Source of the DNA: a virus
DNA: 64,000 nt
Virus record (IMG/VR): IMGVR_UViG_3300013102_000002
Location: 32,001-96,000 of that record
Reading direction: 5' to 3' (one strand)
Both the position numbers and the translations under genes were made by a program. Shown in pieces: positions 9,012-64,000 of this stretch. The first letter of the stretch is position 1, and each line of letters opens with the position of its first letter. Under the pieces are notes generated by a model. It did not search any database. It was not told the origin of the DNA and saw nothing but the letters and a program-made list of their open reading frames with translations.

Positions 9012-9033
9012 TCACAAAATAACCATTTCATCA
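9012..9033. repeat. 22-bp palindromic boundary site
   Basis: Minus strand TGATGAAA-TGGTTA-TTTTGTGA, between the 9045 gene and the recombinase. Confidence 0.75.
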
Positions 9034-22696: not shown

Positions 22697-22718
22697 TGAT
22701 GAAACTCCCATTTCACAA
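22697..22718. repeat. 22-bp palindromic boundary site
   Basis: TGATGAAA-CTCCCA-TTTCACAA. Confidence 0.7.
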
Positions 22719-26327: not shown

Positions 26328-26349
26328 TAATAAAACTATTGTTTTATAT
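26328..26349. repeat. 22-bp palindromic boundary site
   Basis: TAATAAAA-CTATTG-TTTTATAT just downstream of the HU stop codon. Confidence 0.6.
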
Positions 26350-26801: not shown

Positions 26802-27608
26802 CTAAATGGTCTTATTTTTTGTTTTCTCATAGTACTTCTTGTTTTTATCTCTGACGATCTCTTTTTGTCTTTTATTCCAGCAGACACTACAATACTTATT
26901 TCTATTGGAGATAATGCGAATTGGGGTTCCGCACTCACAATAATCAACCCTAAAACCTCGCCACATTTCATACAATAATACAAATTCTCTGAAATCAAAA
27001 ATATTTATCCCATTATTCTCATCGTTAGCCTCGTATTCATCTGCAATATTGATCTCCACAAAAGACGACTGATGATTGTCTGATGGAGTCACATATCCTA
27101 ATTGCTTTAAATGATTAATTAAATTTCTATTCGCGTTAGAGAATGAGAGACCGCAATCTTTAAAGAAGTCTCTGTTGCAGTACGTACCAATCTTACAATC
27201 TCTTCCAATGATCTTATTAATCTTTCCGTAAACCATTAACACAAATGCAATTTTTTCAGCGTCTAAGTTTTCAATTAATTTAATTCTTTCTAGTTCATTC
27301 CCCGAAATAAAAATGCTGTCAATTTCATTTAATTTAAAGTCTTTATTAGAACGTTCATAACTTCTTTTTGTTTTGAAAATAGAAGAGACTGTGCTAGAAA
27401 TATAACTGTCCCATTTTTTTACCCTATATTTTTCTTTCAATCTCTTCTTTAAATATGTTTCAATATTATCTACAATAATACCTTTATCAATACTGCTTAT
27501 AACATAATATTTAACTAGTGTTCTAATAGTATCTGTCAGATTTTCGTCTTCGATTTCGTTATTTAAGACACTTTCCATGTATTTTTTCTCATTCAAAATC
27601 AATTTCAT
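26802..27608 (-). CDS. Conserved phage protein with C-terminal Zn ribbon, overlapping the RNA polymerase stop
   Basis: CECG...KYCSVC; 20-bp overlap with the upstream gene. Confidence 0.75.
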   Translation of the reverse strand: MKLILNEKKYMESVLNNEIEDENLTDTIRTLVKYYVISSIDKGIIVDNIETYLKKRLKEKYRVKKWDSYISSTVSSIFKTKRSYERSNKDFKLNEIDSIFISGNELERIKLIENLDAEKIAFVLMVYGKINKIIGRDCKIGTYCNRDFFKDCGLSFSNANRNLINHLKQLGYVTPSDNHQSSFVEINIADEYEANDENNGINIFDFREFVLLYEMWRGFRVDYCECGTPIRIISNRNKYCSVCWNKRQKEIVRDKNKKYYEKTKNKTI

Positions 27609-30899: not shown

Positions 30900-30988
30900 T
30901 TAATGAATAAATATATACAAATAAATATATATGTGATATGATGTGTTTATGAGACAGATAAGTGCAGACATAATAATTACAATACATA
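30900..30988 (+). promoter_or_regulatory. Conserved box plus promoter of the recombinase-like gene
   Basis: TTAATGAATAAATATATACA...TGATATGAT...AATACATA. Confidence 0.65.
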
Positions 30989-31009: not shown

Positions 31010-32077
31010 ATGAGTGCTATAACAAACAATGTAGTGGGATTACATACGGGTAGTGTGTGGGAGGATATCCAGACGCACCTAAAAGGATTTGAAAGCAAAC
31101 ACACATCTGAAAATTATGAACGTGGTTTGAGAAAGTTCTTTCAATGGTATAAAGGAAAAGATCTAGAGTTGCTAACAAGGGAAGACTTATATATCCGAAA
31201 TGCAGACGTTTTGAAATACCGCAACTTTCTAAAAGAAATACTCGATGAAGAAGGAGAAAGACAATATACAAATACTTCGATCAACAACGTCATTGCTGCC
31301 ATTCAATCACTTTATGTGTTTCTAGAAAAAAACGATTATGATGTAAAATCCGTTACCACCAGAATCAATCCACTTGCTGATGACTCGGTAAGATGTGGTG
31401 CGCTCTATACGCACGAGGCTGAAAAAATGGCAGACATTGTTGTTGATACTGTCAAAGGAATAGAAAAATCGGCATTGATTAGAATGGCATACACAACAAG
31501 CTTTCGTAAGGATTCCCTACGTAAATTAGAATGGAATGACATTGTAAAACATCCAAGTAATAAATATTACGAAGTGACTGTAATGGGTAAAGGTGGTAAG
31601 AAACATACTGTTCCAATTTCAGAAGATCTTTATCAGTATCTACTGAAGATTAAGGATCAGAAGTATTATGCGAGATATGATGATAATAAAATATTCCACT
31701 TAAGTACTGGGGCAATTCAGGATATGATGACTTTTTTGAAAAATAAACTTGGTATCCCTGAACAAAGAAATGTTGTATTCCATAGCTTCAGAAACGTTGC
31801 GTCTATGTATGGAACATTGGAAGAAGCTAAAGAGCACTACAACCACAGCAGTTACAATGTAACAGAAAAATATAGACACAAAGATAATGACATGAGTAAT
31901 AGTTTGAGTTTGAGAATTGGTGAAAAGATTGACGATGGCGTTTTTGAGGAATTAAGTAAAGAGGAATTAATTCAATTACTTATGAGACAAAACGAAGGAG
32001 TGATTCACCAAATGAAGAGAGATGCACAGAAAATTGTTAATGATAAGATTGAAAATAAAAAGGAGAGTGTTGAGTAA
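31010..32077 (+). CDS. Tyrosine-recombinase-fold protein, candidate MrpR/YopR-like repressor
   Basis: SAM-like N-terminus; TTSFRK, GKGGK, FHSFR, NHSS...KY; C-terminal LSKEELIQLL extension. The repressor role is inference. Confidence 0.8.
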   Translation: MSAITNNVVGLHTGSVWEDIQTHLKGFESKHTSENYERGLRKFFQWYKGKDLELLTREDLYIRNADVLKYRNFLKEILDEEGERQYTNTSINNVIAAIQSLYVFLEKNDYDVKSVTTRINPLADDSVRCGALYTHEAEKMADIVVDTVKGIEKSALIRMAYTTSFRKDSLRKLEWNDIVKHPSNKYYEVTVMGKGGKKHTVPISEDLYQYLLKIKDQKYYARYDDNKIFHLSTGAIQDMMTFLKNKLGIPEQRNVVFHSFRNVASMYGTLEEAKEHYNHSSYNVTEKYRHKDNDMSNSLSLRIGEKIDDGVFEELSKEELIQLLMRQNEGVIHQMKRDAQKIVNDKIENKKESVE

Positions 32078-49122: not shown

Positions 49123-52100
49123 ATGTACCAAATTTCAAACATAGAAGTACCACAAAATAAGCGCAAAGAGATAAATGAAAAGATTCAATTCATGATTCAA
49201 AATGATTCTTGTTCTAAACATGGAATCACCAAGCAAAACATATATGACATGTACAGCGGTACGGGTGGATTACATGGTCTAGAATTTAAAGATTTTGATT
49301 CTTTTTACTCCTTCACTGAGGCTAAAAAATTGCGTGAAGTAGGGGAGTTTTTTACACCTCATTCATTGTCAAAGTTTTTAGTGAACTGTTTAAAGATTGA
49401 TCGGTTTCAATTAGTCGCAGATTTGACGGCAGGTAGTGGTAACTTTATTAATTGGCTTCCTAATCAGCAAAATGTATATACTAACGAATTAAATATAAAT
49501 AACTATAAAGTTATGAAATATCTTTATCCTGATATTAACGCAACATGTGGAGATATACGCGAATATAACCCAGGAATGACCTTCGATTGTATTATAGGCA
49601 ATCCGCCGTTTAATTTAAAACTGCACATCAATAGAACGGAATATCTGAGTCAGTTATACTATTGCATTAAAGCCCATGAACTTTTAAAACCGTGCGGAAT
49701 ACTAGCCTTAATTGTTCCAGTCTCTTTTTTGTCTGACGACTTCTCAGATGGTGGAATGATTAAACAAATGAATGATATGTATAACTTTATCCATCAAGTG
49801 GAGTTACCGTCTGATTCTTTTAAATCTAGCGGAGTCGATAAATTCCGTACAAAAATTATGTTCTTTTCTAAAAAGAGTGAACATGTAACAAATGATAATT
49901 TGTATAATACAAGCCTATCAATGTTAAGCGGAATTTCAGACTTAAACAGCAAATCAATTTATAATACATATATTCTACCAGTAATTGAACAAAAGGAAAA
50001 AATAAAACATAAATTATTCTTTGAGCAAGTACAGAATAACCAAAAGGAAAGTAAAAATAATTTAGAATTTCAGTCAAAAGTTAAAAAACACCTATTTGAT
50101 ATCAAACGATCAAAAAATATTAACAACAAATATGCCGCATGTATGGAACATGTCAATAAATATTACAATCAAGAAAAACCCGAAGGAATGAAGTTCGAAG
50201 AATGGGAAAAAGTTCGTTTAACGCCTAATAAAGTATTGTCATATCTCAAGCGAGTCTTAAAGAATCAACATAAAAATGAGCAGGATTGTATTAAACTGGT
50301 TAAGACCAATAGCGGATTAAAATTAAAGGGATACTCTCATAAGAAAAAAATATATCTGTCAAAATACACAGGATTAAAAGAAATAAGTTTTAATGACTTG
50401 ATTTTGAAAGGTGAATATCCATTTGAAGATCAAACCTATAGAAAATTATTGAATAGAAAAATGAAAGCATACAAACAGCAAAGTAAGCCATTTAAAGAAA
50501 TGCAGCAGAACAGTTATATTTCTGAATGGTTAAATTCATATAGGCTTAATGACTCTCTAAATGACCGTGTAATTGAGTTGAACAGCATTCAACGGGAAGA
50601 CATAGGGAAGATACTTCAGAAGCGTTACGGCTTGTTACAGTGGGATTGTGGGGGCGGTAAATCATTGGCAGCAATTGCTTATACTCAATACCATTTACAG
50701 CATAACAATGTTAAAAACATGTTTGTTGTTGCTCCAGCAATTGCAATTACTGGAACTTTTGAATCTGTTTTAGATAGTTACGGTATTCCATTTGTTAAGA
50801 TTGATTCATTAAAAAGTATTGCAAGAATTAAGCCTTCTGACATCGTTCTAGTGACGTTTAATATGTTAACCAAGTACCAAAGACATATTAAGAAATTCAT
50901 ACGTTTAAACGGGCGTAAAATTGGCTTAGTGCTGGATGAATCCGACAGTATAGCAACAATGACAAGCAAGAGAACAAAAGCAACTTTGAATGTATTTAGG
51001 AATGCAAAATATAAACTTTTGACTACGGGTACAAGTGTTAGAAATTCAATAGGGGAAGCATTTCCGCAATTTCAATTGCTCTTTAATTCATCGGTGAATT
51101 TTATTAATCGCTGTGAAGAAATTTATGTACAAGATAAAAAAACTAAAGAGCTGAAAACAGAACGAAATTCACACTATTTAAAGCCTTATCCGCAATATCA
51201 TAAAGGGCAAAAGTTATTTCAGGAAAGCCACATCCCAGAAAAAATAACTGTATTCGGCGTGTCGCAGTCAACACAACATATTTATAATTCAGATATCCTT
51301 AAAAATCTTATTGACTCTACAATTATCACTAGAACGTTTGAAGAAATTACGGGTAGATCTATTGCAAACAGATTTCAAGATACTTGCACATTTAATAACC
51401 ATGAATATACACTATATAAAAAAATTGTAGATGAGTTTTACGAAATGGCTAGGAATGTGCAGAGAACCGGAAACAGCCGAAAAGATAGAATGCTTAAAAT
51501 TATTCAGCAACTTAATATGCTTATTAGAAGTTGCAGTGCTGCACATTTATTTAAAGAATATAATGGTAGTGGTTATTCTTCAAAATTTAAAAAAGTTTTT
51601 ACTATGCTTAAGGAATGGGATAATGAGCCTGTAGTTATTGGATGTCGGTTCAAAAAGACAGTATACAGTTATGCGAGATATATTAGAGAACTTTTCCCAG
51701 AACGCAAATTATTTATTGTTACAGGTGAAGATATGAGCCTTAAGCAGCGCAAAGAAATGATTACAGAAATGAAAAAACATACAAATCCAATTATGGTTTG
51801 CACTCAGCAATCACTTTCAAGCAGCGTTAGTATAAATTATGTGAATAAAATTATAGTAACGGAATTAGCCTGGAATGGGGCCAGCCTACACCAATTTACA
51901 GCGAGATTTATTCGTTTTGATTCAGAAGCCGATAATAAAGAAATTCATTATGTAACATACGAAAACAGTATCGAAAGCAATTTACTTAAACTGATATTGA
52001 GTAAAGAAAAGCTTAATTTATTCATGAAGGATGACAACATAGATGACGAAGAATTATTTGAGCGTTTCGGCGTTGACTTTGACATTTTGAATATGCTAAT

Positions 52101-52164
52101 GACAAAGGAAAAGGATCAAGACGGATATACTAGATTGAACTGGGGTCAACAAGAAATTATTTAA
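49123..52164 (+). CDS. N6-adenine DNA methyltransferase fused to SNF2-like helicase
   Basis: GEFFTP, DLTAGSGNF, IGNPPF; Walker A CGGGKS, LDESD, TTGT, C-terminal helicase domain. Confidence 0.85.
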   Translation: MYQISNIEVPQNKRKEINEKIQFMIQNDSCSKHGITKQNIYDMYSGTGGLHGLEFKDFDSFYSFTEAKKLREVGEFFTPHSLSKFLVNCLKIDRFQLVADLTAGSGNFINWLPNQQNVYTNELNINNYKVMKYLYPDINATCGDIREYNPGMTFDCIIGNPPFNLKLHINRTEYLSQLYYCIKAHELLKPCGILALIVPVSFLSDDFSDGGMIKQMNDMYNFIHQVELPSDSFKSSGVDKFRTKIMFFSKKSEHVTNDNLYNTSLSMLSGISDLNSKSIYNTYILPVIEQKEKIKHKLFFEQVQNNQKESKNNLEFQSKVKKHLFDIKRSKNINNKYAACMEHVNKYYNQEKPEGMKFEEWEKVRLTPNKVLSYLKRVLKNQHKNEQDCIKLVKTNSGLKLKGYSHKKKIYLSKYTGLKEISFNDLILKGEYPFEDQTYRKLLNRKMKAYKQQSKPFKEMQQNSYISEWLNSYRLNDSLNDRVIELNSIQREDIGKILQKRYGLLQWDCGGGKSLAAIAYTQYHLQHNNVKNMFVVAPAIAITGTFESVLDSYGIPFVKIDSLKSIARIKPSDIVLVTFNMLTKYQRHIKKFIRLNGRKIGLVLDESDSIATMTSKRTKATLNVFRNAKYKLLTTGTSVRNSIGEAFPQFQLLFNSSVNFINRCEEIYVQDKKTKELKTERNSHYLKPYPQYHKGQKLFQESHIPEKITVFGVSQSTQHIYNSDILKNLIDSTIITRTFEEITGRSIANRFQDTCTFNNHEYTLYKKIVDEFYEMARNVQRTGNSRKDRMLKIIQQLNMLIRSCSAAHLFKEYNGSGYSSKFKKVFTMLKEWDNEPVVIGCRFKKTVYSYARYIRELFPERKLFIVTGEDMSLKQRKEMITEMKKHTNPIMVCTQQSLSSSVSINYVNKIIVTELAWNGASLHQFTARFIRFDSEADNKEIHYVTYENSIESNLLKLILSKEKLNLFMKDDNIDDEELFERFGVDFDILNMLMTKEKDQDGYTRLNWGQQEII

Positions 52165-53133: not shown

Positions 53134-53331
53134 ATGAAGCCAAATAACTTAATTAATAGACAGGTGAAAATAACTGATCATGATTCCCCTTATTATGGTC
53201 ATTGGGGATACGTTAAAAATTATGATGGTGACTTATTTCATATATCAGGCGGTTCAATATCTACAGACAGCGGAGAGATAACGGCAATTTTTGACCGTGA
53301 TCAATTTAAAATCGTCAAAACAAAAAAGTAA
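53134..53331 (+). CDS. Small SH3/KOW-like protein (paralog of 59438..59629)
   Basis: GHWG...DG..FHI.GGSIS.D.G.IT..F.RD.FKI shared by both. Confidence 0.75.
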   Translation: MKPNNLINRQVKITDHDSPYYGHWGYVKNYDGDLFHISGGSISTDSGEITAIFDRDQFKIVKTKK

Positions 53332-53684
53332 CGGAGTGGACGGTGTAATAATGGAGAATATAAGAGTTAATAACAATACTGATTATGAAAATGACCAATT
53401 TTTAGGCATATGTAAGTTCTGTCTAGAGGCTGCAATAATTGACGATATAGAGGTGTGCATACATTGTATCAAGTGAGTTAGAATAAATTCCGTTCTTGAT
53501 AAAAACAAGGTTTTATCAAATTCTAAATGAATATTTATACGGCCCTTAATTTACAAGTGTCGTATTTTTCATGAGAATATACATTTAAATGTATGAATAT
53601 TAGGACGGAAAATTTAATGAATAAATATATACAAACACATAAAAGTGTGATACAATGTATTTATAAGGTAATACATAGGAGGCA

Positions 53685-53876
53685 ATGAATATGAAATTTG
53701 AACGTGGAGTACCATACGAAATCAAGTATAAAGGCGTAAAGAAATCAAAGGTTGGAACGTATCTCTGTACAAGCGATGGAGTTAACATATTTTTTGATAT
53801 AAGCGGTGAATTTGGTGTAAGTGATGAATTTATCAAGAATCGGCATGTTGATATTGAAGAAATAGCGGACATTTAG
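53685..53876 (+). CDS. Hypothetical protein
   Basis: 63 aa, AGGAGG RBS. Confidence 0.7.
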   Translation: MNMKFERGVPYEIKYKGVKKSKVGTYLCTSDGVNIFFDISGEFGVSDEFIKNRHVDIEEIADI

Positions 53877-54067
53877 TGAATTACTCATTTCATAAGGAGA
53901 TGTTAACAATGTTGAAAAATAAAAATCCTAAATTGTGGGCTTGCGCAAAAGAGATTTGCAGAATTAAGAATGAAGGAAAAACATTCAAAGATGTAAAGGA
54001 TTTAAGGAATTTCGTTAAAGAGAATAAATCTCTCTTGCCAGCAGTTGTTGATGGTTGGGCGGTCTAA
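53876..54067 (+). CDS. Hypothetical protein
   Basis: Ends inside a palindromic site. Confidence 0.6.
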   Translation: MNYSFHKEMLTMLKNKNPKLWACAKEICRIKNEGKTFKDVKDLRNFVKENKSLLPAVVDGWAV

Positions 54068-54113
54068 ATGAAAGAGTGATTTCGTTTAATAAACATTGAA
54101 AGGGAGTATAAAT

Positions 54114-54278
54114 ATGAAGGATGAATTAATTATCACACTAAAAACAAACAATAGTTCTACAGACATTATGAATTTTGTAACTGCTGTAAATAAAACAAAT
54201 AGTCTGACTGCGCTAGTTTTACCAAAATTAGATGATAAAAATTATTTTGAGATTAGTGTCTATAAATTAAACACTTAA
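54114..54278 (+). CDS. Small hypothetical protein (cassette-like)
   Basis: GGGAG RBS; bracketed by sites 54066 and 54276. Confidence 0.6.
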   Translation: MKDELIITLKTNNSSTDIMNFVTAVNKTNSLTALVLPKLDDKNYFEISVYKLNT

Positions 54279-54391
54279 TAAAACCCGTCTTTCATAGCCT
54301 ATATTCACAACACACAGTCACAATAGCCCATTACTTACGCGATTTATTCAGATGTGTTACTATGGCAAAAAGAGCTATAGGAGGCGTTAAA

Positions 54392-54646
54392 ATGGCTTAC
54401 ACAACGTGTAGAGATGAGTTGTTGAAGACGGTCAGAACGTTAGTGAAGGATAAGGGTAAAAATGAATTTACACCTATAGAAGTCATATCCCTGATGATTC
54501 AAAATGGGTCTAATTATAATGTGAGAACGATACGAACACATATTGTATCTAAGTGCTGCATTAACGCTAACCAGAATCATGCTGAAGTATTTAATGATTA
54601 TAGGAGATTGGAAAGAGGAAAGTATGAGTTGGTTAATTTTAAATAA
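54392..54646 (+). CDS. Winged-helix-like hypothetical protein
   Basis: EFTPIEVI...TIRTHIVSKCC...RLERGKYEL; AGGAGG RBS. Confidence 0.65.
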   Translation: MAYTTCRDELLKTVRTLVKDKGKNEFTPIEVISLMIQNGSNYNVRTIRTHIVSKCCINANQNHAEVFNDYRRLERGKYELVNFK

Positions 54647-54782
54647 AAAGTGAGTGCTTGGTGAGTAGATCACTGAGCACGTTTTTATTTAATTAATAAA
54701 TATATATTGACAATACAATTAGTGGAGTGTATTATTGTAGATAAGAAGAGGAAACACAATACATAGTGCGGAGGCGGTAAAG

Positions 54783-55013
54783 ATGATGAAAATTTCAGAG
54801 CTTATTGAAGTTTTACAAAAGATTGATCAAGATATGTATGTTGAGGTGGATACTCCGGTAAATCAAACATATCATATTCCTTATTCTTCTAGCAACGAGA
54901 TTTTTAAGGTTGAGGGGCTAGTGAAGAAGAGTATGGATAGATTTGTAATAAGCATTCGCTTCCCAGAAAATGTACAGGAATTAAACGCTCAAGTTAATTT
55001 AAGTAAAAAATAA
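54783..55013 (+). CDS. Hypothetical protein
   Basis: MKISELIEVLQKID-type small phage protein; GGAGG RBS. Confidence 0.7.
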   Translation: MMKISELIEVLQKIDQDMYVEVDTPVNQTYHIPYSSSNEIFKVEGLVKKSMDRFVISIRFPENVQELNAQVNLSKK

Positions 55014-55065
55014 GTAACGAAGATTTGATCAAATTTTAAATTTATTAGATAATGGAGGAATTTAT

Positions 55066-55248
55066 GTGGATGTTAGTCAGAAAGTGCTTAACATTACTTT
55101 TAGTATCGCTGCCGCCTATGTAGTTATTCGAATGGCATTAGATTTTTCTACTGACAACTTCAATCACTTAGTGATTAGAGCCGGACAACTCGCTTTTATT
55201 GCTGCCGTTTATTATTACACTACTTACAGATTAAAGAAAGACGGATGA
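55066..55248 (+). CDS. Small two-TM membrane protein (cassette-like)
   Basis: Two hydrophobic helices; bracketed by sites 55026 and 55261. Confidence 0.65.
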   Translation: MDVSQKVLNITFSIAAAYVVIRMALDFSTDNFNHLVIRAGQLAFIAAVYYYTTYRLKKDG

Positions 55249-55381
55249 TATGTTATCTTTGAATGAAATGTCAATTTCACATAAATCAAGGTATTCAAAA
55301 TGAAAATTTAGGTATTGACTTTGAATCACTAAATATGTTAAGATGTAAATATAAGAAAAGATATTAAAGGAGCGGGTTAAC

Positions 55382-55816
55382 ATGACAGAAGTAGTCGAAG
55401 TGGTTAAGGTAGATGGAAGAGGTAAAAACATTAAACATTTTGATCTTCTAGAAGTTAACACTGCTTATCTGGACTCATTCAGAAACAGTAAATATCCAGA
55501 GTGGAATACAAATAAAAAACAAAGTAGTTCTTGGGCGCAATATAAAGTAAGCTTTGGAAAGTTTCTTGAGTCTATTGATAAAGATGCCGTTACAATTGAT
55601 GAAGACGAATTGATGACCTTCATTGTATCATTTGAAAATGAAGAAGTTAAAAAGAATCGCACCGTACACGTTAGAACATTGCTGACACACATTTTAACAC
55701 ACAACATTGAAAACTGCCGTGATCATGCAAGCAAATTTGTATTAGTATTTACCGGAAGTGTTGCTGCTTGGTTGGTTGATGATAAAGAATTGTTAGCAAG
55801 AATTGAAAAAATGTAA
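55382..55816 (+). CDS. Protein resembling the integrase N-terminal SAM-like domain
   Basis: SSWAQYKVSFGKFLESIDKDAVTIDEDELMTFI; preceded by TTGACT-17-TAAGAT. Confidence 0.5.
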   Translation: MTEVVEVVKVDGRGKNIKHFDLLEVNTAYLDSFRNSKYPEWNTNKKQSSSWAQYKVSFGKFLESIDKDAVTIDEDELMTFIVSFENEEVKKNRTVHVRTLLTHILTHNIENCRDHASKFVLVFTGSVAAWLVDDKELLARIEKM

Positions 55817-55831
55817 TAAGGAAGTGGCATC

Positions 55832-56050
55832 ATGAATTTTGGACAATATATCAAGAATCTAATTGATGAGAGAGGTTACCGCATTCCCTGGGTAGCTGAT
55901 AAAGTTGGAATACATGAAAAAACATTACATGGAAAAATAAGAAGAGACAGCTTTAGTTATGATGAAATGATTGGGCTGGCGGTGTTCTTTAATATAGATT
56001 TGAATCAATTTAAGGAATATGAAGAGTTTCAAAAATACAAAAACAATTGA
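55832..56050 (+). CDS. XRE-family HTH protein
   Basis: MNFGQYIKNLIDERGYRIPWVADKVGIHEKTLHGKI. Confidence 0.75.
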   Translation: MNFGQYIKNLIDERGYRIPWVADKVGIHEKTLHGKIRRDSFSYDEMIGLAVFFNIDLNQFKEYEEFQKYKNN

Positions 56051-56064
56051 TGGAGGTTTTATAA

Positions 56065-57084
56065 ATGATTAAAAAAGCTAACATCCAATGGAGTGCGAAA
56101 CAACTCACAAAGTCAATTCAAAAAGGCAACATTAAATTTGATAATGCTGTGCAACGTGGTTATGTATGGGATCAAGATAGAAAGTCTCTGCTTATTCATT
56201 CTCTTATCGAAGGATACCCTGTACCAGCGTTCTACGCTGTCAAAGATGAGAATAGTCAATATAGCATGCTCGATGGCAAGCAACGCTCTGAGGCCATTAG
56301 CGGCTTTCTAAATGGAGAATATGAACTAACCAATGTCCCAGAAATTAATATTGGCGATGAAGGCGAAACGCTGAATATTAACGGTCTAAGATTTTCCAAT
56401 TTACCAGAAGATGCAAGAGATGAAATAGAAAGTTATTCACTAACTGTTTATTATTTTGATAGTCAGATTACGGACGATGAAATAAATGAATTGTTCTTCA
56501 GATTAAATAACGGTAAGCCATTAACAAGTATTGAACTTAGCAGAGTTAAGGCTAAATCAATTGAAACTATCCAGGAGATCGGCAAACATGAACTTTTCAA
56601 AGCAACACTAACAGAAAAGGCCATTAACAAATATACAAATGAAGAAATTGTTATTAAATCATGGGCGATGCTGAACGTTGAACAACCTTCATTTGAAACT
56701 AAGTCAATCCGTCCTCTGATTGAAACAGCAGATATTACGCCGGAACAGACAGAAGAAATTAAAATTGCCTATGATCGAATCCTAGAGACATATAACTCAA
56801 TCAAGCAGATTGATGATAAAGAGCATAATAAAATTGCAAAACGAATCATCACACGCACACACTTGATTGCACTGGTTCTAGTAGCCGCTAAATCCGTTAG
56901 TGATGGAGTTGGGATTTCCGATTTTACAAAATGGGCAACGTCATTTTTTAGTGGAAAGAATTCTGCAAGTGTGAGCGATATTTATAATAGTGCAATTGGC
57001 TCTGGATCTGCAAAACCGGAAAACATCAAGAAAAGAAATGATTCGATTATGGAAAGTTACAATGAACAATTCTCAAACCAATAA
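56065..57084 (+). CDS. DUF262 (ParB/Srx-like) domain protein
   Basis: VQRGYVW...LIHSLIEGYPVP...LDGKQR...LFFRLNNGKPL. Confidence 0.85.
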   Translation: MIKKANIQWSAKQLTKSIQKGNIKFDNAVQRGYVWDQDRKSLLIHSLIEGYPVPAFYAVKDENSQYSMLDGKQRSEAISGFLNGEYELTNVPEINIGDEGETLNINGLRFSNLPEDARDEIESYSLTVYYFDSQITDDEINELFFRLNNGKPLTSIELSRVKAKSIETIQEIGKHELFKATLTEKAINKYTNEEIVIKSWAMLNVEQPSFETKSIRPLIETADITPEQTEEIKIAYDRILETYNSIKQIDDKEHNKIAKRIITRTHLIALVLVAAKSVSDGVGISDFTKWATSFFSGKNSASVSDIYNSAIGSGSAKPENIKKRNDSIMESYNEQFSNQ

Positions 57085-57513
57085 CCACACCTGTACTTAC
57101 TGCAACAAGCCCGTCACACAAGCAGCATACGCTTACTGTCTGTCTAATGGGCTTCCTGTGGCTTGCTACAGGTGTCAATATGATAAGGGTATAAGTAAAT
57201 ATAGTGTACACCAGAGAATGCGACAGAAGGTCGATGAGGAGGGTTTGACAATGAATTTAGATGATGAGGAGGAATAAAGAATGAATATGTTAAAAGGAAT
57301 AATGATGGACTTTTGGTCTAATAACTGGACTCTGGTTGCTGCTATTGTGGTATGGGGATTATGGATTGTTAAAGTTGTGGAGTGTGTAACTGATTAGTTT
57401 AAAGAATAAATATATATTGAATAATATATATGCGTGTGGTATGATTGCATCAAGAAATACATAGGACGAATACTGATCAAACAGTTACTTTATCAAATTT
57501 AAGGAGGTCATCT

Positions 57514-57672
57514 ATGAATGATTATCTGGTAGTGTTCTATAATCGGTTTGCATGTCAGACTCAGACGATAAAAATTAGAGCAAAAAATAAGTTTCGAGCT
57601 GGACGAGAATTTTATAAACAATACGATAAAAAACAGTAATATGAAACAATTGAGGCTATTACTAAGTGCTGA
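57514..57672 (+). pseudogene. Small cassette gene with a probable internal nonsense codon
   Basis: MNDYLVVF...YDKKQ*YETIEAITKC*; second stop TGA is the start of site 57670. Confidence 0.4.
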
Positions 57673-57715
57673 TGAAAGTCTGAGTTTATCAAAAATATAA
57701 AGGACGGTAGATAAA

Positions 57716-58048
57716 ATGAAAATTAATGAAGAATTACTAAAAGAAAAAGGATATAACGCTTATACTGCTGGATTCCGAATCGACAACCCGGCCTATGTGC
57801 AATCATGGCAAAAAACGTTTTATGATACAAATAATAAATATTATATTGATATCGATCAATTTGATTTTGCTAAAGTTCCACAATATAAAATCCCCTATGA
57901 TAAAGCGTTTGGTGCTCATGCTCAATTTATCACTGAAGAAGACGAAACATTTAATATTGAATATTTTATTGAGAAAGATACTGAGTTGATTGACATAGAA
58001 CTATTTTTCAAAAAAGTATACGAAAAGATGGATTGTAAATCTGAGTGA
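57716..58048 (+). CDS. Hypothetical protein
   Basis: 110 aa. Confidence 0.75.
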   Translation: MKINEELLKEKGYNAYTAGFRIDNPAYVQSWQKTFYDTNNKYYIDIDQFDFAKVPQYKIPYDKAFGAHAQFITEEDETFNIEYFIEKDTELIDIELFFKKVYEKMDCKSE

Positions 58049-58352
58049 TGAATATATAAAAGGAGGTACTAGTGTTATGCAAACAGCAATACGTTGTCGA
58101 GATGATCAAGGAAATATTATCATGAGTATGCGCGAAGAAAAAATCAAAACTTTGCCCGATATAATTGCAGATATTGAAAAAGCAATAATTATTGTAGGAG
58201 TAATCTTTATAGCTGTTGTAACTGCTGTAGCGGTACTATTATAAATAAAAATACAAATACATATCACAATTATGGGAATACACATCAAGAAAATAGCCGA
58301 TGTGTATTTTTCTTTGTGGTAAAACAAATCAAAAGGAGCTGCAAGCCTCTAT

Positions 58353-58535
58353 ATGTCATCATATGACCGTTATCTAATTGAAGCAGAACATTCGTCGCAT
58401 CCATTTGAAACTGGCCTTATATCGTCTTTTACGGTGGCTAACAAGGTGTATAAACGTTGGCAAAGTGATCCGTGGGTTAGTAATGTACGATTGATGAAAT
58501 GCACTAACCAGGGGAGAGTACATATAGAAATATAG
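58353..58535 (+). CDS. Hypothetical protein
   Basis: 60 aa, GGGAG RBS. Confidence 0.5.
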   Translation: MSSYDRYLIEAEHSSHPFETGLISSFTVANKVYKRWQSDPWVSNVRLMKCTNQGRVHIEI

Positions 58536-58640
58536 AAATAATGAATAGATTTAATAAATAAATATATATTGACTGTTGTTGTTTTGCGTGATAAGATAAT
58601 TACAGATAATAAACATACATACATGAGGTGAAATGGATTA

Positions 58641-58790
58641 ATGTACGAAGTAAAAATCATTGAAAAGATATTTGGAAAGTTAGCAGTAAACGTGTACAGC
58701 TTTGAAAAAGAAGGAGATATGGAACTGTTCATTGAAATGTGTAAGGATGATAGGGGGATTATTTTGATCCATAAAGCGAGAGCTGCTTAA
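58641..58790 (+). CDS. Small hypothetical protein
   Basis: 49 aa after a conserved promoter, GAGGTG RBS. Confidence 0.55.
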   Translation: MYEVKIIEKIFGKLAVNVYSFEKEGDMELFIEMCKDDRGIILIHKARAA

Positions 58791-58839
58791 AGAAAAGCTG
58801 ACGAAATTATGTTTTTATCAAAAAGGAGAGAGGTAAACA

Positions 58840-59184
58840 ATGCAAGTTGGAGATAAAGTTTTCTTGAAAGCAGTAAACAATAATGCGCGAGGTCGTAAAG
58901 AAGTACTGATTAAAGAATATGAAATTGTTAAGATCGGAAGAAAATTCTTTGAGGTTAATAATAACCCCAATTACAAACCATTAAAATTTTTAATTGAGAA
59001 TAAGAAGCAGGAAATGGGCGGCTATGTTCCAGACTGGGAATTGTACTTTTCTGAACAAGAAATTTTAGATGAAATAGAATTCAATAGATTATTCGGGAAA
59101 ATCGAAAGCAGATTTAATGTATATGGGAAAGTGAATTTAACTTTAGACCAACTTAGACGAATTATAAAGATTATTGAAGAGTAA
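58840..59184 (+). CDS. Beta-barrel-type small phage protein (cassette-like)
   Basis: MQVGDKVFL...IVKIGRKFFEV; bracketed by sites 58799 and 59183. Confidence 0.75.
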   Translation: MQVGDKVFLKAVNNNARGRKEVLIKEYEIVKIGRKFFEVNNNPNYKPLKFLIENKKQEMGGYVPDWELYFSEQEILDEIEFNRLFGKIESRFNVYGKVNLTLDQLRRIIKIIEE

Positions 59185-59215
59185 ACGAAACTATATTTTC
59201 ATGTGAAAAAGGAGA

Positions 59216-59404
59216 ATGAGAGTGAAGAAGATTATCGAATATACTAACGTTACCTATCATTATGATACAAGAGAAGAAAGAGATAAGCACGTTGTTGAAA
59301 TGGAGTCTGAAGGTTGGGAGTGTAGCGGACAGATTAGGGAAACTCCATCACTTCATTCATCGGAATCTGTGTGGTGCGGTAAATTCACAAAATACAATGT
59401 TTGA
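59216..59404 (+). CDS. Hypothetical protein (cassette-like)
   Basis: Bracketed by sites 59183 and 59403. Confidence 0.7.
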   Translation: MRVKKIIEYTNVTYHYDTREERDKHVVEMESEGWECSGQIRETPSLHSSESVWCGKFTKYNV

Positions 59405-59437
59405 GTAAAATGATCCTTTCAAAAGGAGTTAAATAGT

Positions 59438-59629
59438 ATGAATCCCAAAAACATGATCGGCAAAAAAGTATCAATCATCAACAAAGAATCTCAATACATA
59501 GGACATTGGGGATTTATAAAACAATGGGATGGAAGATGGTTTCATATTGGAGGAGGTTCCATATCAAGAGATTATGGTGGGATTACACCAGTATTTGAAA
59601 GAGATGAATTTAAAATCATGAGTAAATGA
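59438..59629 (+). CDS. Small SH3/KOW-like protein (paralog of 53134..53331)
   Basis: Shared motifs; AAGGAG RBS. Confidence 0.75.
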   Translation: MNPKNMIGKKVSIINKESQYIGHWGFIKQWDGRWFHIGGGSISRDYGGITPVFERDEFKIMSK

Positions 59630-59658
59630 ATATTATAACAAAAAAAGGAGATTGGAAG

Positions 59659-59823
59659 ATGAGTCGAATTAAAGGTTTTACCTTAACCTGCAATGAGTGC
59701 GGAAACACCGTTGTACTGCAAGACAAATTCGATAGATGTACTGAGAACATCTTCATTAATACGTGGATGTCTTGCGATATTAAATGTGAAAACTGTGAAA
59801 ATCAAGTTGAAGAAAAAGCATGA
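59659..59823 (+). CDS. Small Zn-ribbon protein
   Basis: CNECG...CENCE; AAGGAG RBS. Confidence 0.6.
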   Translation: MSRIKGFTLTCNECGNTVVLQDKFDRCTENIFINTWMSCDIKCENCENQVEEKA

Positions 59824-59852
59824 GTTTATAAATAGATTATTTTATAAGGAGG

Positions 59853-60047
59853 TTGATTTATAAGATGTACCAACACAAAGTTACTTATATTGAAGGAGAC
59901 TATGAGGATAAGCTGTATGTTGGAGGTAAATATTGTGGTCGCGTGGATACATTTTCACCGTCAGAGATGCTTTGTTTGCTCGCAAGAGAAGGATTAATTG
60001 AGTTGCAAATTAAAACTGTGGAAGAAATCGATTTGTTGAATAGATGA
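59853..60047 (+). CDS. Hypothetical protein
   Basis: AAGGAGG RBS; stop TGA begins site 60045. Confidence 0.65.
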   Translation: MIYKMYQHKVTYIEGDYEDKLYVGGKYCGRVDTFSPSEMLCLLAREGLIELQIKTVEEIDLLNR

Positions 60048-60088
60048 TAAAAGGATTCTTTTATTAAAATAAAAATAAAAGGGAGTGT

Positions 60089-60460
60089 ATGAAATTTATG
60101 ACTAAATGGATTGGCAATGAAGTCAATACGAGTGGAAGTTATTACGAGGCAGGTTGTGAAGAACTAAAGAAGAGAAATGGCGGTACAAATAATGGAGGAA
60201 CTTTGTATGAGTTCAGTAGCAGATTTGACGAGAACTATTATATAAGCGATATCGATGTAATTGAAAAAATTGAAACATTGATTGATAAAAAAGAACCTTC
60301 AGAATTGATTGATTACTTATATAAATTGACCATTGATAAATTCGGCGCTGTTGATCTTTTAGTGAGAATCGGACATAAGATAGCACGACAGCGAGATGAA
60401 GGTTATAAAGCAGGTAAAGAAGCGGCTAGAAGCACCATGCGTGAAGCGCTTGGGTTATGA
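60089..60460 (+). CDS. Hypothetical protein (cassette-like)
   Basis: Bracketed by sites 60045 and 60455. Confidence 0.75.
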   Translation: MKFMTKWIGNEVNTSGSYYEAGCEELKKRNGGTNNGGTLYEFSSRFDENYYISDIDVIEKIETLIDKKEPSELIDYLYKLTIDKFGAVDLLVRIGHKIARQRDEGYKAGKEAARSTMREALGL

Positions 60461-60491
60461 AAGAAGTATTTCACAAGGAGACATTAGCATA

Positions 60492-60695
60492 ATGGATGAA
60501 AAAGTATATGTAGAGTTTGCCGAAGATTGCGGGAATTATGACAACGTTATCTATAATCTGAGAATTAAGAAGTGCGATTTACCACATATTGGTGACACTA
60601 TTGAGTTCTATCCAGAAATCAATGGCCGTAAAGTTGTCGATAGAAAAATTACATACTCTAAAGGTGAAATTGATAAAATCAGAATTTATCTATAG
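60492..60695 (+). CDS. Hypothetical protein (cassette-like)
   Basis: ATG after AAGGAG; bracketed by sites 60455 and 60699. Confidence 0.65.
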   Translation: MDEKVYVEFAEDCGNYDNVIYNLRIKKCDLPHIGDTIEFYPEINGRKVVDRKITYSKGEIDKIRIYL

Positions 60696-60732
60696 GGCTA
60701 ATGCAATAAGTCTTTTACAAGGAGTTGATTTA

Positions 60733-60930
60733 ATGACAGAAACAGAAGCAATTATGAGAAGAAAAGCTAGGAGAATTAAAAGAGCAAGTGAAATGGTCGA
60801 ATGGCTTCGTTATGATATTGAACGTACAGCAGTAAGTGAAGTTGAAAAACAAGGGTTATTAAATACAATCACTTTATTGAATAAAATTTTAAAGAATGAT
60901 GATAAAGAAGATTCCATATGGAATAGGTGA
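60733..60930 (+). CDS. Hypothetical protein (cassette-like)
   Basis: ATG after AAGGAG; bracketed by sites 60699 and 60928. Confidence 0.65.
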   Translation: MTETEAIMRRKARRIKRASEMVEWLRYDIERTAVSEVEKQGLLNTITLLNKILKNDDKEDSIWNR

Positions 60931-60981
60931 TGAAAGAGAAAGTTTATCAAGAATTTATTATAAAAAATAAATATACAAAGG

Positions 60982-61164
60982 ATGATACATATGAATACAT
61001 GGGATTTCATTGTTAACAATCAAGTTGTTGAAACCATTGACCAACAACAAAACAAGGAATCATTTTATTGGATTGTATTAGACAAGGTGTATTCACTCAC
61101 ACAGCACTATGGGGCTTCTGTGACCGTCTATAACCGTTACGGGAGTGAATACAGTTATGTATAA
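60982..61164 (+). CDS. Hypothetical protein
   Basis: 60 aa. Confidence 0.55.
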   Translation: MIHMNTWDFIVNNQVVETIDQQQNKESFYWIVLDKVYSLTQHYGASVTVYNRYGSEYSYV

Positions 61165-61274
61165 GAATGGACGAGTAAAGGACGGAAAGTGTGTTGTGGT
61201 GACTGTGGAAGGTGCGGAAATTGGTTTACTTGATGCTGCTAAAAAATATAGTCAAAATATTAAATAGCTGATGT

Positions 61275-61306
61275 GGCGGACATTATAAAATGTTCGCCAT
61301 TTTTTA
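61275..61306 (+). terminator. Rho-independent terminator
   Basis: TGGCGGACATT...AATGTTCGCCA followed by a T-run. Confidence 0.7.
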
Positions 61307-61657
61307 TTTAATAAGTAAATATATATTGAATAATGACTATGTATATGGTAAAATGAAGGAGACAAGAAGGATGTTATACATATGAAGGAGAATAGAATAT
61401 TGAGCGCTGATAATGCTAAAATGAGATCAATGATTGCTTTACAAATCCGGGATCTGGAAGCATTGAAGGATTCTGCCGTTGCCAAGTCATCACCTCAACG
61501 GTTAATGATGGTTGAGGCTGAGATTAAGGGATTGCATGTTAGAATGGAAAAGTATGCTTGATTTATGTTTTCGTAAAAGGTTGGTTTTATCAAGATATTT
61601 GGTTTAAAAAAGCCAATAAAATCAAGGGTTTTTAAAATGACAAGGAGGAGTAAAAAA

Positions 61658-62194
61658 ATGAAATGGAGCGATATACCGCAACTTATTCAAAGTAGTGGAT
61701 GGGAATGTGATTATTCTTTTCCTTCTTTTGTTCGGTTCATTGAGGAGAACGAACAAGATTTTGGGCTGCAAATGAATCCTGATTTTCAACGTGGTCATGT
61801 CTGGAGTGAAGAACAGCAAGTATCTTACATAGAGTTTTTACTGCATGGCGGTAAAACAGCTAGAGTAATTTATTTGAATAATAATCATTGGCAGAAGACG
61901 AAACCCCAAGGGGAACAATATTTTGTTTGTGTTGATGGACTGCAAAGGGCAACTGCGATCAGAAGATTTGTAAACAATGAAATTAAAGCAATAGATCATT
62001 ATTATAGTGAATTCGAAGGAAGCCCAAGAATTATGCAAGGAATCAAAGTGAATGTGAATGATCTTCAAACTAGAGCCGAGGTTTTACAATGGTATATTGA
62101 ATTTAACTCAGGTGGTACGGTACATACAAAAGAAGAAATAGAGCGTGTTCGTGAATTGCTAATAAAAGAAACTAAGTACAATGATCTACTTTAA
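61658..62194 (+). CDS. Stand-alone DUF262/ParB-like protein
   Basis: NPDFQRGHVWS...VDGLQRATAI; AGGAGG RBS. Confidence 0.8.
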   Translation: MKWSDIPQLIQSSGWECDYSFPSFVRFIEENEQDFGLQMNPDFQRGHVWSEEQQVSYIEFLLHGGKTARVIYLNNNHWQKTKPQGEQYFVCVDGLQRATAIRRFVNNEIKAIDHYYSEFEGSPRIMQGIKVNVNDLQTRAEVLQWYIEFNSGGTVHTKEEIERVRELLIKETKYNDLL

Positions 62195-62209
62195 AGGAGA
62201 GTACGAACG

Positions 62210-62437
62210 ATGCTTGTATTTTTTCTAATTTACTCCTATGTCACTGTAATGCTCTGTAAATATCTATATAGAGGGATAATGTCATATCATAGTGAAAGCA
62301 ATTTTATCTTGGCGCTTAAAGAAATGAGTGAGCGAAAATACTTGAGAATCGTATTTTCGGTGATTGGATTTTGTTTAACCGCTGGATGTCTAGTTTTTCT
62401 GCTTTGGTTGGCAGAAATTACAGATAATGCGTTTTGA
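62210..62437 (+). CDS. Small membrane protein
   Basis: Two hydrophobic segments. Confidence 0.65.
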   Translation: MLVFFLIYSYVTVMLCKYLYRGIMSYHSESNFILALKEMSERKYLRIVFSVIGFCLTAGCLVFLLWLAEITDNAF

Positions 62438-62503
62438 CATCTGATCAAAGGAATGTTTTATCGGATTACACATTAGACACATATAGTAAAGGAGAAAAGT
62501 AAA

Positions 62504-62707
62504 ATGACCTTTAAAATCCTTAAAGAACATAAGTATTTTCTTAGTATTGGAGCGAAACGTCCAGAAGGATTTACTGGAATCATGACATCCAGTGAGCATA
62601 TAGCAACATACAAAGGAAAAAATGAAGATGGAACTTTCATCTTTGATGAAAATGGTTCTGAGTTGTTGGTATGTCCAAGCGATATCAGAGGGATATCAAA
62701 TTTCTAA
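62504..62707 (+). CDS. Hypothetical protein
   Basis: 67 aa, AAGGAG RBS. Confidence 0.7.
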   Translation: MTFKILKEHKYFLSIGAKRPEGFTGIMTSSEHIATYKGKNEDGTFIFDENGSELLVCPSDIRGISNF

Positions 62708-62945
62708 GACTGCTGAACAGTCGAAGATATAACGACATATGAAAGGAATGGAGGGTCCTAAAATGCACAGCAATGTGAATGGTGTTAATGGATATCAAAT
62801 TCATCATTGGACGCTATTACATAACAGATAAAAAAGACAACGGTGTGTGGCTCTGCGAGGATAAGGATAGAAGTATTGTAGAGGAATATGCAAAAACATT
62901 GGAGTAGAATGAAAGGCATCTTTTATCAAGAAAGGAGGGTGAATA

Positions 62946-63167
62946 GTGAATCATAATACCGGATCAGTACTTAATGGCGATTATGTTAGGCTAGGAGACG
63001 TTTTAATGGGCGACAACATGATTAAAGCTGTTGTCCTATGGGATGATGTTAATAGAGCATATGGGGTTGAAATTGGACAACAGAGAGACACATGGTGTGA
63101 ACTTGAGCCATATCTGATTAAAGATGAAAGTCTAAAAGTTGTTGGCAATATTCTTAATAGAAATTGA
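62946..63167 (+). CDS. YopX-like small protein
   Basis: TG...NG..V..GDVL...LKVVGNI pattern of the YopX C-terminal half. Confidence 0.55.
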   Translation: MNHNTGSVLNGDYVRLGDVLMGDNMIKAVVLWDDVNRAYGVEIGQQRDTWCELEPYLIKDESLKVVGNILNRN

Positions 63168-63234
63168 CTACTAAGAGGACATTCTAAGAGAGTGAAATGA
63201 AAGCTCCATGCAGAAAGTATAGGAGGGATTTAAT

Positions 63235-63432
63235 ATGAGAGTCGAATATGTTAAAGATCGTTTCGATGATGAATTTACTCTTAATAAAAAATACGACTTT
63301 GATGTTAAATCGTATGGTATTGAGATTGTTGATGACCTGAACAATAAACATGTAATAGCCACGAGAAACAATGAGTTCAATAGTTATGAAGAAGACGATT
63401 TTTTTAGGCACAGATTCGAATTTTGTGATTAA
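63235..63432 (+). CDS. Hypothetical protein
   Basis: 65 aa, AGGAGG RBS, stop overlaps site 63432. Confidence 0.7.
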   Translation: MRVEYVKDRFDDEFTLNKKYDFDVKSYGIEIVDDLNNKHVIATRNNEFNSYEEDDFFRHRFEFCD

Positions 63433-64000
63433 GATAAAATGTAGTTTTGATCAAAAGATATACATACATTGAGAGAGAAAGGAAGAAGATAAATGATTGA
63501 GTTAAACAATCTTAATGTAACTAATATCGTTTATGATGAGGACTATGTTCTCATCATAAAAGGTAAAGAAATTGTACAAATTAGTCGAGTTTTATTGTCG
63601 CGAATCAATGTGATGTTATCAGATGAAAAGGAATAAATATTTCTTATGTTACGAAGTCACAGAACCAGAAAGAGAGTTATGAATAAATGCATCAGAAAAA
63701 AGTATGGAGCCTTGACATGAAGTACGAAGATACAAAGGGAGGATATAAGCGTGGACAGTAGACTTTGTGTTTGCAGAGAGTGTCAAAAGGCATTTCGGAG
63801 CACGTACAACGGCTATCTGTGCAGAAATTGCAGGTTGTCTAAAAGAGGACCTTTACCAAAATGATATTTAGAGGAGGATATTAAATGACACAAACAATTG
63901 TAGACTTTATGTATAATATGGATATTAACGATAATGGCAATATTCAAGCAGTCGTACAGATTAACTCAGAAACGGGGAGGTTTGAAATAACGGAGAAAGA

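Follow-up and report, generated by a model that had tools for sequence, protein, structure and literature searches.

It has long been asked how phages can swap unrelated genes and yet keep their gene order, a question of modular phage evolution bound up with the 'linker' idea. Among described elements, the PeSLs of T4-like phages are short conserved motifs that bound small early genes in hyperplastic regions and act as exchange points (PMC4122927). Heterospecific lox/FRT sites are used for recombinase-mediated cassette exchange (PMC2875000). Here we describe a 22-bp palindrome that recurs between the genes of a viral contig, IMG/VR record IMGVR_UViG_3300013102_000002 (174,510 bp, 34% G+C, direct terminal repeats), of which bases 32,001-96,000, a stretch of 64,000 nucleotides, form the window analysed here. 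The phage is a large SPbeta-type siphovirus from soil. Literature searches found no description of the palindrome. A first-pass annotation, made from the window's letters alone, had reported the copies at 53,496-63,453 (the reported range) as an integron-like array of gene cassettes, an interpretation that is partly supported. We tentatively read the palindromes as position-labelled crossover joints, whose centre must match between partners and which are possibly served by a YopP-like recombinase; we hold this as our best explanation and accept that it may well prove wrong.

Form, number and placement of the palindrome

An iterated weight matrix gave the consensus T-N-A-T-R-A-A-A, N6, T-T-T-Y-A-T-N-A, an 8-6-8 arrangement of 22 bp that is symmetric across both arms. 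The strict core ATRAAA-N6-TTTYAT had seven matches in the window versus 0.28 expected, and 26 22-mers with no more than three mismatches were found there versus 7.7 ± 2.8 expected. Genome-wide, the matrix detected 76 sites compared to 10.4 ± 3.1 in Markov-2 random genomes. This enrichment was confined to a spacer of 6 bp (76 sites), with spacers of 2-5 and 7-11 bp remaining at background (7-17). The sites are spread over ~110 kb; 61/76 (80%) are intergenic, and intergenic DNA makes up 16% of the genome. The stop codon of the preceding gene is typically at -5 to +10 nt relative to the left edge, and 13-45 nt separate the right edge from the following start codon, which places the palindrome between stop codon and ribosome-binding site (RBS) inside operons, away from promoters. 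The three bases following the right arm (A-R-A) were conserved on that side only.

Within the reported range, 18 sites scored at least 8 bits, and the match at 60283, which lies in a coding region, is probably due to chance. Two weak sites, 54066 and 59403, were validated by relatives carrying the same centres at corresponding places. The total for the range is 19 credible sites and one doubtful. Much of the first-pass description holds: all 11 of the sites it quoted are present, its 'about 20' copies agree with this total, the motif is enriched over background at gene junctions as it had claimed, and its fixed 6-bp core is borne out by the spacer counts. Its picture of a local array does not hold, the element being genome-wide.

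The central hexamers are all different, as the annotation had noted for its own examples; all 76 are mutually distinct, with no palindrome among them and no two related as reverse complements, which is close to random expectation. Avoidance of near-identical centres within the genome was not detectable.

The two arms vary independently. Watson-Crick pairs numbered 15 at variable positions 2/21 (17.3 expected with right arms shuffled among sites) and 22 at positions 5/18 (23.9 expected), A-C mismatches between the arms were as frequent as expected, and each arm fits the half-site consensus independently of the other. This absence of covariation, together with the rigid spacer, argues for a double-stranded DNA site bound by a two-part protein rather than an RNA hairpin or a folded strand of the attC type; a hairpin of RNA or single-stranded DNA was rejected on the lack of covariation.

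Central hexamers in related phages

The complete IMG/VR relative G001 (166,580 bp) is collinear with this genome (only 47% aligns, at 65-95% identity) and has 77 core motifs versus 12 matches to a control pattern. Between the two genomes we identified 54 collinear site pairs, of which 46 had identical centres (6/6) and eight matched at 5/6, compared to ~3 identical centres expected by chance among 7,068 pairs. At 33/54 paired sites, the adjacent genes on both sides lacked blastp similarity. Between 59826 and 60928, for example, five consecutive centres are shared (agatta/tgatta, ggattc, gaagta, taagtc and gagaaa), while the four genes within are unrelated to those of G001 (60 vs 82, 123 vs 71, 67 vs 124 and 65 vs 53 residues). 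Both neighbouring genes had a G001 homologue at 3/57 motif junctions versus 37/159 other junctions (P = 0.0024). The sites thus mark junctions beside variable genes, and relatives retain them when the intervening genes change, both in support of the first-pass interpretation.

No part of the site is better conserved than the centre. Across orthologous sites, centre positions were 91-100% identical (97.5% overall), compared to only 50-63% for the degenerate arm positions 2, 5, 18 and 21. The chain of G001 pairs had been pre-selected for a centre match of at least 5/6, and the test was repeated on sites paired by a spanning alignment of at least 70 nt alone; in these, mismatch was 4.8% in the centre, 15% in the flank (P = 6e-5) and 37.5% at degenerate arm positions. 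Centre changes relative to G001 fell at position 14 (five), 9 (two) and 12 (one).

Of the ends of homologous segments, 14 lay no more than 15 nt from a site centre, versus 1.6 expected for random positions. Where homology broke at a site, the complete 22-mer with its centre was retained in both genomes, attached to either the left or the right flank, and many breakpoints fell at the outer edges of sites.

We further scanned IMG/VR for the centre ggattc within its arms. Most matches were chance, and at least ten motif-dense contigs were recovered (L061, L063, L078, L093, L099, L111, L118, L129, L090 and L039). These share the order cagtta, gttgaa, gattaa, ctatat, tgatcc, tgaata, agatta, ggattc, gaagta, taagtc, followed by gagaaa/gagcga, ggttga/ggttta, taacta, tgactg and then ggcatc, tacgaa. 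The order of centres was conserved across at least 12 genomes. The slots between them varied in length and content (ggattc and gaagta are 249-1,146 bp apart), extra slots occurred occasionally, and the flanks of a given centre were usually unrelated between genomes. Homologous genes occupied the same address in 10 pairs on the left side of a site and 17 on the right. At gaagta, four genomes had a common right flank and the unusual right arm TTTGATAA, joined to four different left arms and left flanks. Where the right flank alone was shared, the right arm was 92% and the left arm 78% identical (P = 0.003). Some crossovers appear to have fallen inside the site and some at its outer edge, the resemblance among all arms leaving the exact breakpoints ambiguous.

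The arms recur in phages of other hosts, as judged from motif counts compared with a reversed-pattern control:

Psychrobacillus phage Perkons: 71 motifs, 13 controls (at most one mismatch)
Geobacillus virus E3: 69 motifs, 16 controls (at most one mismatch)
Bacillus phage FADO: 49 motifs, 8 controls (at most one mismatch)
Bacillus phage PBC2: 32 motifs, 8 controls (at most one mismatch)
Clostridium phage c-st: 61 motifs, 40 controls (at most one mismatch), no clear enrichment
Tsamsa: 21 motifs, 0 controls (exact)
Nate: 18 motifs, 0 controls (exact)
Kirov: 21 motifs, 0 controls (exact)
Staphylococcus SPbeta-like phage: 10 motifs, 0 controls (exact)
Mammaliicoccus phi36: 18 motifs, 1 control (exact)
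Lactococcus 949: 2 motifs, 0 controls (exact), not enriched
Lactococcus phiL47: 2 motifs, 2 controls (exact), not enriched

SPbeta carries ~10 junction sites of the form RATAAAA-N6-TTTTATYT, among them those at SPBc2 positions 24125, 44414, 57145, 83685, 113661, 128074, 131388 and 132744. Centre sharing of this phage with Perkons, E3 and SPbeta was at chance level and, with no centres in common, the labels appear to be lineage-specific.

The Tsamsa group of Bacillus phages provided an independent replicate. Tsamsa and Kirov (56% aligns, 74% identity) had ten identical centres, all collinear, compared to 0.7 by chance, and the 100-nt flanks of nine of the ten were unalignable on both sides. Within anchor-defined intervals, centres in such variable surroundings were either identical or unrelated, the ratio of 6/6 to 5/6 matches being 23:4 for this phage and G001, 5:1 for Tsamsa and Nate and 8:2 for Tsamsa and Kirov. 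Alignable DNA in the Tsamsa group is only 74-79% identical, at which neutral drift would give more 5/6 than 6/6 centres. At Tsamsa-Nate sites inside conserved DNA, mismatch was 21% in the centre versus 17.5% in the flank. From this excess of 6/6 matches in variable surroundings and flank-rate drift in conserved DNA, centres would seem to be kept exactly where neighbouring genes are exchanged, and to drift where the neighbours are stable. At what is apparently the same site, Tsamsa has TGATGA (8162-8179, KC481682.1) and Nate its reverse complement TCATCA (7949-7966, NC_071044.1), a difference that two substitutions, or a flip of the centre within its perfectly palindromic arms, could explain.

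The sites of the reported range, followed by five from elsewhere in the window, are:

53497-53518: site TGATAAAA-acaagg-TTTTATCA, perfect consensus, 20.8 bits; acaaga (5/6) in G001, homology begins at the left edge
53874-53895: site, centre tactca; same centre in G001 and L078, homology stops at the right edge
54066-54087: weak site AAATGAAA-gagtga-TTTCGTTT, below 8 bits; gagtga at the corresponding place in G001 (52178) and in L078
54276-54297: site, centre cccgtc; same centre in G001, homology begins at the left edge
55026-55047: site, centre ttttaa; same centre in G001 and L090, both flanking genes non-homologous
55261-55282: weak site, centre tgtcaa, 9.0 bits; same centre in G001 at 53418
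57474-57495: site, centre cagtta; missing from G001, same centre in L061, L093, L118 and L102
57670-57691: site, centre gtctga, 18.6 bits, intergenic; no counterpart found in relatives
58799-58820: site, centre ttatgt, 19.1 bits; missing from G001, where homology stops 9 nt upstream
59183-59204: site, centre ctatat; same centre and centre order in L061, L078, L093, L099, L118, L129 and L090
59403-59424: weak site GAGTAAAA-tgatcc-TTTCAAAA; same centre in eight other contigs including G001
59826-59847: site, centre agatta; same centre in at least seven contigs, tgatta (5/6) in G001
60045-60066: site, centre ggattc, the IMG/VR query; both flanking genes non-homologous in G001
60455-60476: site, centre gaagta; same centre in G001 and eight contigs
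60699-60720: weak site, centre taagtc; same centre in G001, L063, L078, L093 and L111
60928-60949: site, centre gagaaa; same centre in G001, homology begins at the left edge
61571-61592: site, centre ggttgg; ggttga (5/6) in G001, with extra genes and sites inserted after it
62442-62463: site, centre ggaatg; decayed site with the same centre in G001
62907-62928: site, centre ggcatc; identical 22-mer in G001, upstream gene replaced
63432-63453: site, centre tgtagt, 16.7 bits, directly after a stop codon
46210-46231: site, centre tacttg, beyond the reported range; centre shared with G001, homology begins at the left edge
26328-26349: site, centre ctattg, between genes of the late (minus-strand) cluster; centre shared with G001, homology on the right flank only
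22697-22718: site, centre ctccca, between genes of the late cluster; centre shared with G001
9012-9033: site, centre taacca, intergenic and immediately upstream of the YomM-like gene; centre shared with G001
7583-7604: site, centre tgatag; same centre in G001

Between 57378 and 58029, a block of ~650 bp with two sites and two genes is missing from G001 (55066-55082 there), and the segments bordering it overlap by 17 bp in G001, pointing to a short direct repeat, not the palindrome, as the place of the insertion or deletion. Small paralogues sit in different slots (53134-53331 and 59438-59629; 52% and 89% identical to one G001 gene). The small-gene array also includes two GmrSD_N genes (DUF262, ParB-like nuclease) at 56065-57084 and 61637-62194, with G001 counterparts of only 25% and 63% identity. 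The variable region is closely preceded, at 49123-52164, by a gene for a 1,013-residue protein that joins an N6-adenine methylase to a DEAD/ResIII helicase and is 94% identical in G001. A megablast of 53,400-63,500 against the phage collection gave no near-identical match.

Candidate proteins and competing readings

In the mechanism that we tentatively favour, the 8-bp arms would dock a two-part phage protein on duplex DNA and the 6-bp centre would serve as a position label. Related phages could then swap small early genes between sites by crossover at allelic sites, for which the centres would have to match between partners, as in the overlap region of lox, FRT and dif sites. Differing centres would keep the gene order and block recombination or deletion among the ~76 sites of one genome. 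The universal arms point to one binding protein, and locus-specific centres that stay intact while arms and genes turn over point to a function dependent on a matching site in another genome. The simplest mechanism would be a tyrosine recombinase exchanging strands over a 6-bp overlap identical in both partners, and the 8-6-8 geometry fits core-type tyrosine-recombinase sites, as the first-pass annotation had recognised. A requirement for matching centres between recombining partners is suggested by the genome comparisons. What the data show directly is the element, its place at junctions, its symmetry at the DNA level and the survival of sites with unchanged centres, also in variable surroundings, as adjacent genes are replaced. 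That a protein binds, that strands are exchanged inside the centre and which enzyme acts are inferences, the choice of enzyme being the weakest step. Two proteins encoded in the window are candidates:

31010-32077, plus strand: YopP-like tyrosine recombinase (P0001), Pfam Phage_integrase (PF00589), E = 2.7e-12; the most likely candidate catalyst
7973-8977, minus strand: YomM-like tyrosine-recombinase-fold protein (P0002); alternative candidate binder

P0001 opens the plus-strand early cluster, 22 kb upstream of the reported array. It is 30% identical to SPbeta YopP (E = 4e-34), the function of which is unknown (PMC8612738). Its catalytic set is complete (R166, K194, H258-x-x-R261, H279 and Y288, the R and K being confirmed by alignment with XerD), in agreement with the tyrosine recombinase that the first-pass annotation had placed there, and the phage is thus predicted to encode a catalytically complete enzyme. 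The active-site R, K, H, H and Y were invariant across the YopP-like family (SPbeta, FADO, PBC2, 949, Staphylococcus, Mammaliicoccus, Tsamsa and Kirov), and the motif was present in most examined phages with a YopP-like gene. At the second catalytic position, arginine (H-S-F-R) occurred in this phage alone. P0002 is 64% identical to a conserved gene of SPbeta-like phages, Perkons and E3; a lysine replaces its second catalytic arginine (H-L-F-K), and it is probably inactive. The Tsamsa paper describes three Cre/XerD-type recombinases of unknown role and does not mention the palindrome (PMC3903500).

Several observations weigh against crossover joints of this kind. Homology breakpoints, taken as BLAST segment ends, were not significantly enriched at motif junctions (22/57 versus 48/159, P = 0.25), a point on which the first-pass interpretation is unsupported. 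The only sequencing runs with this DNA, two rhizosphere DNA metagenomes kept as contigs, one of them probably the source of the genome, gave no excision circles or joints at the sites, and joints only between repeated promoter elements. Where the left flank alone was shared, the arms were equally similar (left 80%, right 85%), which implies that many crossovers lay outside the site. Homologous genes were also found at different, mostly neighbouring, addresses (7 pairs on the left and 13 on the right). In every other YopP-like protein examined, the second catalytic arginine is a lysine (H-S-F-K), and Lactococcus 949-type phages have a YopP-like gene without the motif; in these, no other motif emerged from a generic count of inverted repeats, which was too noisy, and a search of 949 for perfect 5-mer arms found none. 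At 8 bp, the arms fall short of the 11-13 bp of Xer and Cre sites. Finally, short-homology recombination at ~12-14 identical bases predicts the same pattern of conservation, and no selection is evident that would keep a centre within a single genome.

A wider claim is speculative, and we regard it as doubtful: large SPbeta-, Tsamsa- and E3-type phages of Bacillota would practise a natural recombinase-mediated cassette exchange, with ~75 heterospecific sites per genome served by one phage tyrosine recombinase (YopP- or YomM-like), and with centres as the addresses at which co-infecting or resident relatives swap accessory genes slot by slot, leaving gene order unscrambled.

The alternative that survives best, possible in our view and still questionable, is that the palindrome is a regulatory docking site at which a dimeric phage protein, for example the YomM-like protein or a repressor, blocks or tunes transcription of the early operons, as in stoperator-like silencing of a prophage or late shut-off of early genes. 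Gene swapping would then be a by-product, the site being the only sequence common to unrelated genes and so used by ordinary or annealing-protein recombination wherever matches are exact. The symmetry, fixed spacer and lack of covariation would suit such a site, as would its position between stop codon and RBS within operons and not at promoters. A conserved binder is further implied by the same arms in Bacillus, Geobacillus, Psychrobacillus, Staphylococcus and Mammaliicoccus phages, and both the neutral drift of Tsamsa and Nate centres in conserved surroundings and the many breakpoints at outer site edges are as this alternative would have it. MrpR, a repressor with a tyrosine-recombinase fold that binds the SPBRE element, offers a precedent for such a fold turned to repression (PMC10516654). 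Against regulation alone, a spacer that binds nothing should not be 97% conserved beside arm positions that turn over. Uninterrupted identity between partners is often only ~12-14 bp, which is short for homologous recombination. The sites are palindromic, unlike stoperators, and the phage's own MrpR homologue more plausibly binds a separate promoter repeat.

That repeat, TTTAATRAATAAATATATA, contains the palindrome ATTTA-N5-TAAAT and has 19 copies versus 0 in a random genome (~19-20 genome-wide), those in the window lying at 30909-30940, 38474, 44282, 53623, 54698, 57408, 58560 and 61317. It abuts the -35 box of early promoters, often just past a terminator, and two tandem copies precede the YopP-like gene. 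The reported range has at least five promoters (53628, 54707, 57417, 58569 and 61326) and terminators at 54654 and 61273; these promoters and terminators are repeats separate from the 22-bp palindrome, and none coincides with it. PeSL-like composites of terminator and promoter repeat are present at 54654-54735 and 61273-61354. The MrpR-family master-repressor homologue lies outside the window (genome 102,473-103,468; L016:6473-7468) and matches Pfam MrpR_N_CB and MrpR_C_cat, as well as PDB 9rd5 (4e-35) and 8a0a (2e-23). It is preceded by a YopQ/DndB-like gene and followed shortly downstream by an AgrB-family gene (L016:8241-8777), part of a peptide-signalling cassette. From ten MrpR-bound SPbeta promoters, SPBRE was recovered as CAAATACAAAWAATATGTATA, inside the promoter, with the core ATACA-N7-TGTAT. 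The TTTAATRAATAAATATATA repeat is likely the operator of the MrpR-family repressor and the counterpart of SPBRE. The 22-bp palindrome was rejected as an SPBRE/MrpR operator, as its sequence differs and it lies inside operons, with SPBRE in promoters.

It was likewise rejected as a promoter of the YonO-type polymerase, being symmetric, too near the RBS to leave a leader and found mostly in the early cluster. Late genes occupy the minus strand (genome 10.7-62.7 kb), and early and middle genes the plus strand from 63 kb to the end. The YonO-like single-chain RNA polymerase is encoded at 27589-30378 (minus strand) and is 44% identical to that of Clostridium phage c-st, 36% to those of Enterocloster phages and 25% to SPbeta YonO, which drives a single late operon (PMC5467207).

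According to the first-pass annotation, cassettes would be captured, excised and shuffled in an integron-like array by a recombinase tolerating non-identical centres. Promoterless blocks of one or two genes bounded by sites do exist as it described, and the one shared promoter that it placed before them is only roughly right, given the five or more listed above. Gene-plus-site units are present or absent between genomes, and some homologous genes sit at different addresses, as shuffling would produce; these addresses are mostly neighbouring slots, as insertions and deletions would give. The conserved order of centres in at least 12 genomes speaks against capture and shuffling between sites. 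The centres are not hybrid; they are locus-specific and nearly invariant between allelic sites, which points to in-place allelic exchange rather than shuffling and makes the invoked Tn916-type tolerance of non-identical centres unnecessary. The integron analogy also fails on architecture: there is no attI/attC arrangement, no hairpin covariation and no attC-like length or folding in sites of only 22 bp, which extend over ~110 kb, and no integron-type integrase with an attI platform adjoins the array (the integron-integrase signature was not looked at). We regard such an array as decidedly unlikely.

An RNA element is very unlikely as well. Hairpins in the polycistronic early transcripts could direct processing, stability or downstream translation, and the palindrome is always transcribed, lies 0-12 nt upstream of the RBS and is followed by A-R-A on one side only. 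Pairing is not selected, with A-C mismatches at expectation and 2/21 pairs below it, the stem would amount to only ~6 A-U pairs around a spacer of rigid length, a locus-specific conserved centre has no role as a loop, and the sites persist when the downstream gene is replaced. A conserved Bacillales host protein (a nucleoid, segregation or Xer-type factor) is a similarly unlikely binder, for although phages from several host genera have this half-site at this spacing, the motif is not enriched in Clostridium phage c-st or the lactococcal 949 phages and we know of no host operator that fits among the dif, Fur, Rex, CodY, Spo0A, parS and ComK boxes.

Comparison with known systems

If the crossover reading is true, the linkers of modular phage evolution are here visible, uniform and individually labelled, the conserved 'extra' tyrosine recombinases of these phages would gain a function, and the centres would give engineers ready-made recombination sites that exclude one another. 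Should the protein be a regulator only, the palindrome would nonetheless be a control element of a new, genome-wide kind, and a clear instance of recombination restricted to exact short matches. The sites occur in cultured phages with genetics: SPbeta (Bacillus subtilis 168), the Tsamsa group, FADO and Geobacillus virus E3.

Integrons likewise combine promoterless small genes with recombination-type inverted repeats downstream of promoters. Their attC sites, 57-141 nt long, are bound in folded single-stranded form, and their cassettes change position; the palindrome is 22 bp long, shows no selection for pairing and keeps a fixed order of addresses. The pdif sites have arms for host XerC/XerD in alternating orientation and their modules occur in varied contexts, compared to symmetric, phage-specific arms and a conserved order of contexts here. 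Stoperators are 13 bp long, asymmetric and oriented with transcription, and have no locus-specific part, in contrast to the symmetric matrix of the palindrome. The likeness lies elsewhere: pdif modules of Acinetobacter plasmids also comprise many Xer-type sites with 6-bp spacers around small gene modules (PMC10132070), and cluster A mycobacteriophages also place dozens of repressor-type sites in short intergenic gaps throughout their operons (PMC6550527). SPBRE, from the same phage family, is repeated and bound by a tyrosine-recombinase-fold protein, and differs from the palindrome in sequence and in lying inside promoters (PMC10516654).

Like the palindrome, PeSLs mark the boundaries of swapped genes in variable regions. 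They are composites of promoter and terminator with one shared sequence that recombine by homologous recombination, whereas the palindrome is neither promoter nor terminator and has a locus-specific centre. Heterospecific lox/FRT sites and the dif/Xer system share with it two inverted arms around a short centre of fixed length, and in lox/FRT exchange, partners with the same centre are required, sites with other centres do not cross-react and the segment between two differing sites is exchanged in place. The lox, FRT and dif systems are engineered or single-site; here, each genome has ~76 natural sites, each with its own centre, and the enzyme is a candidate. Unlike in those systems, centre mismatches between relatives fall mostly at the outer positions 9 and 14. 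Overall, the PeSL linker is the closest known concept, and heterospecific lox/FRT exchange the closest mechanism.

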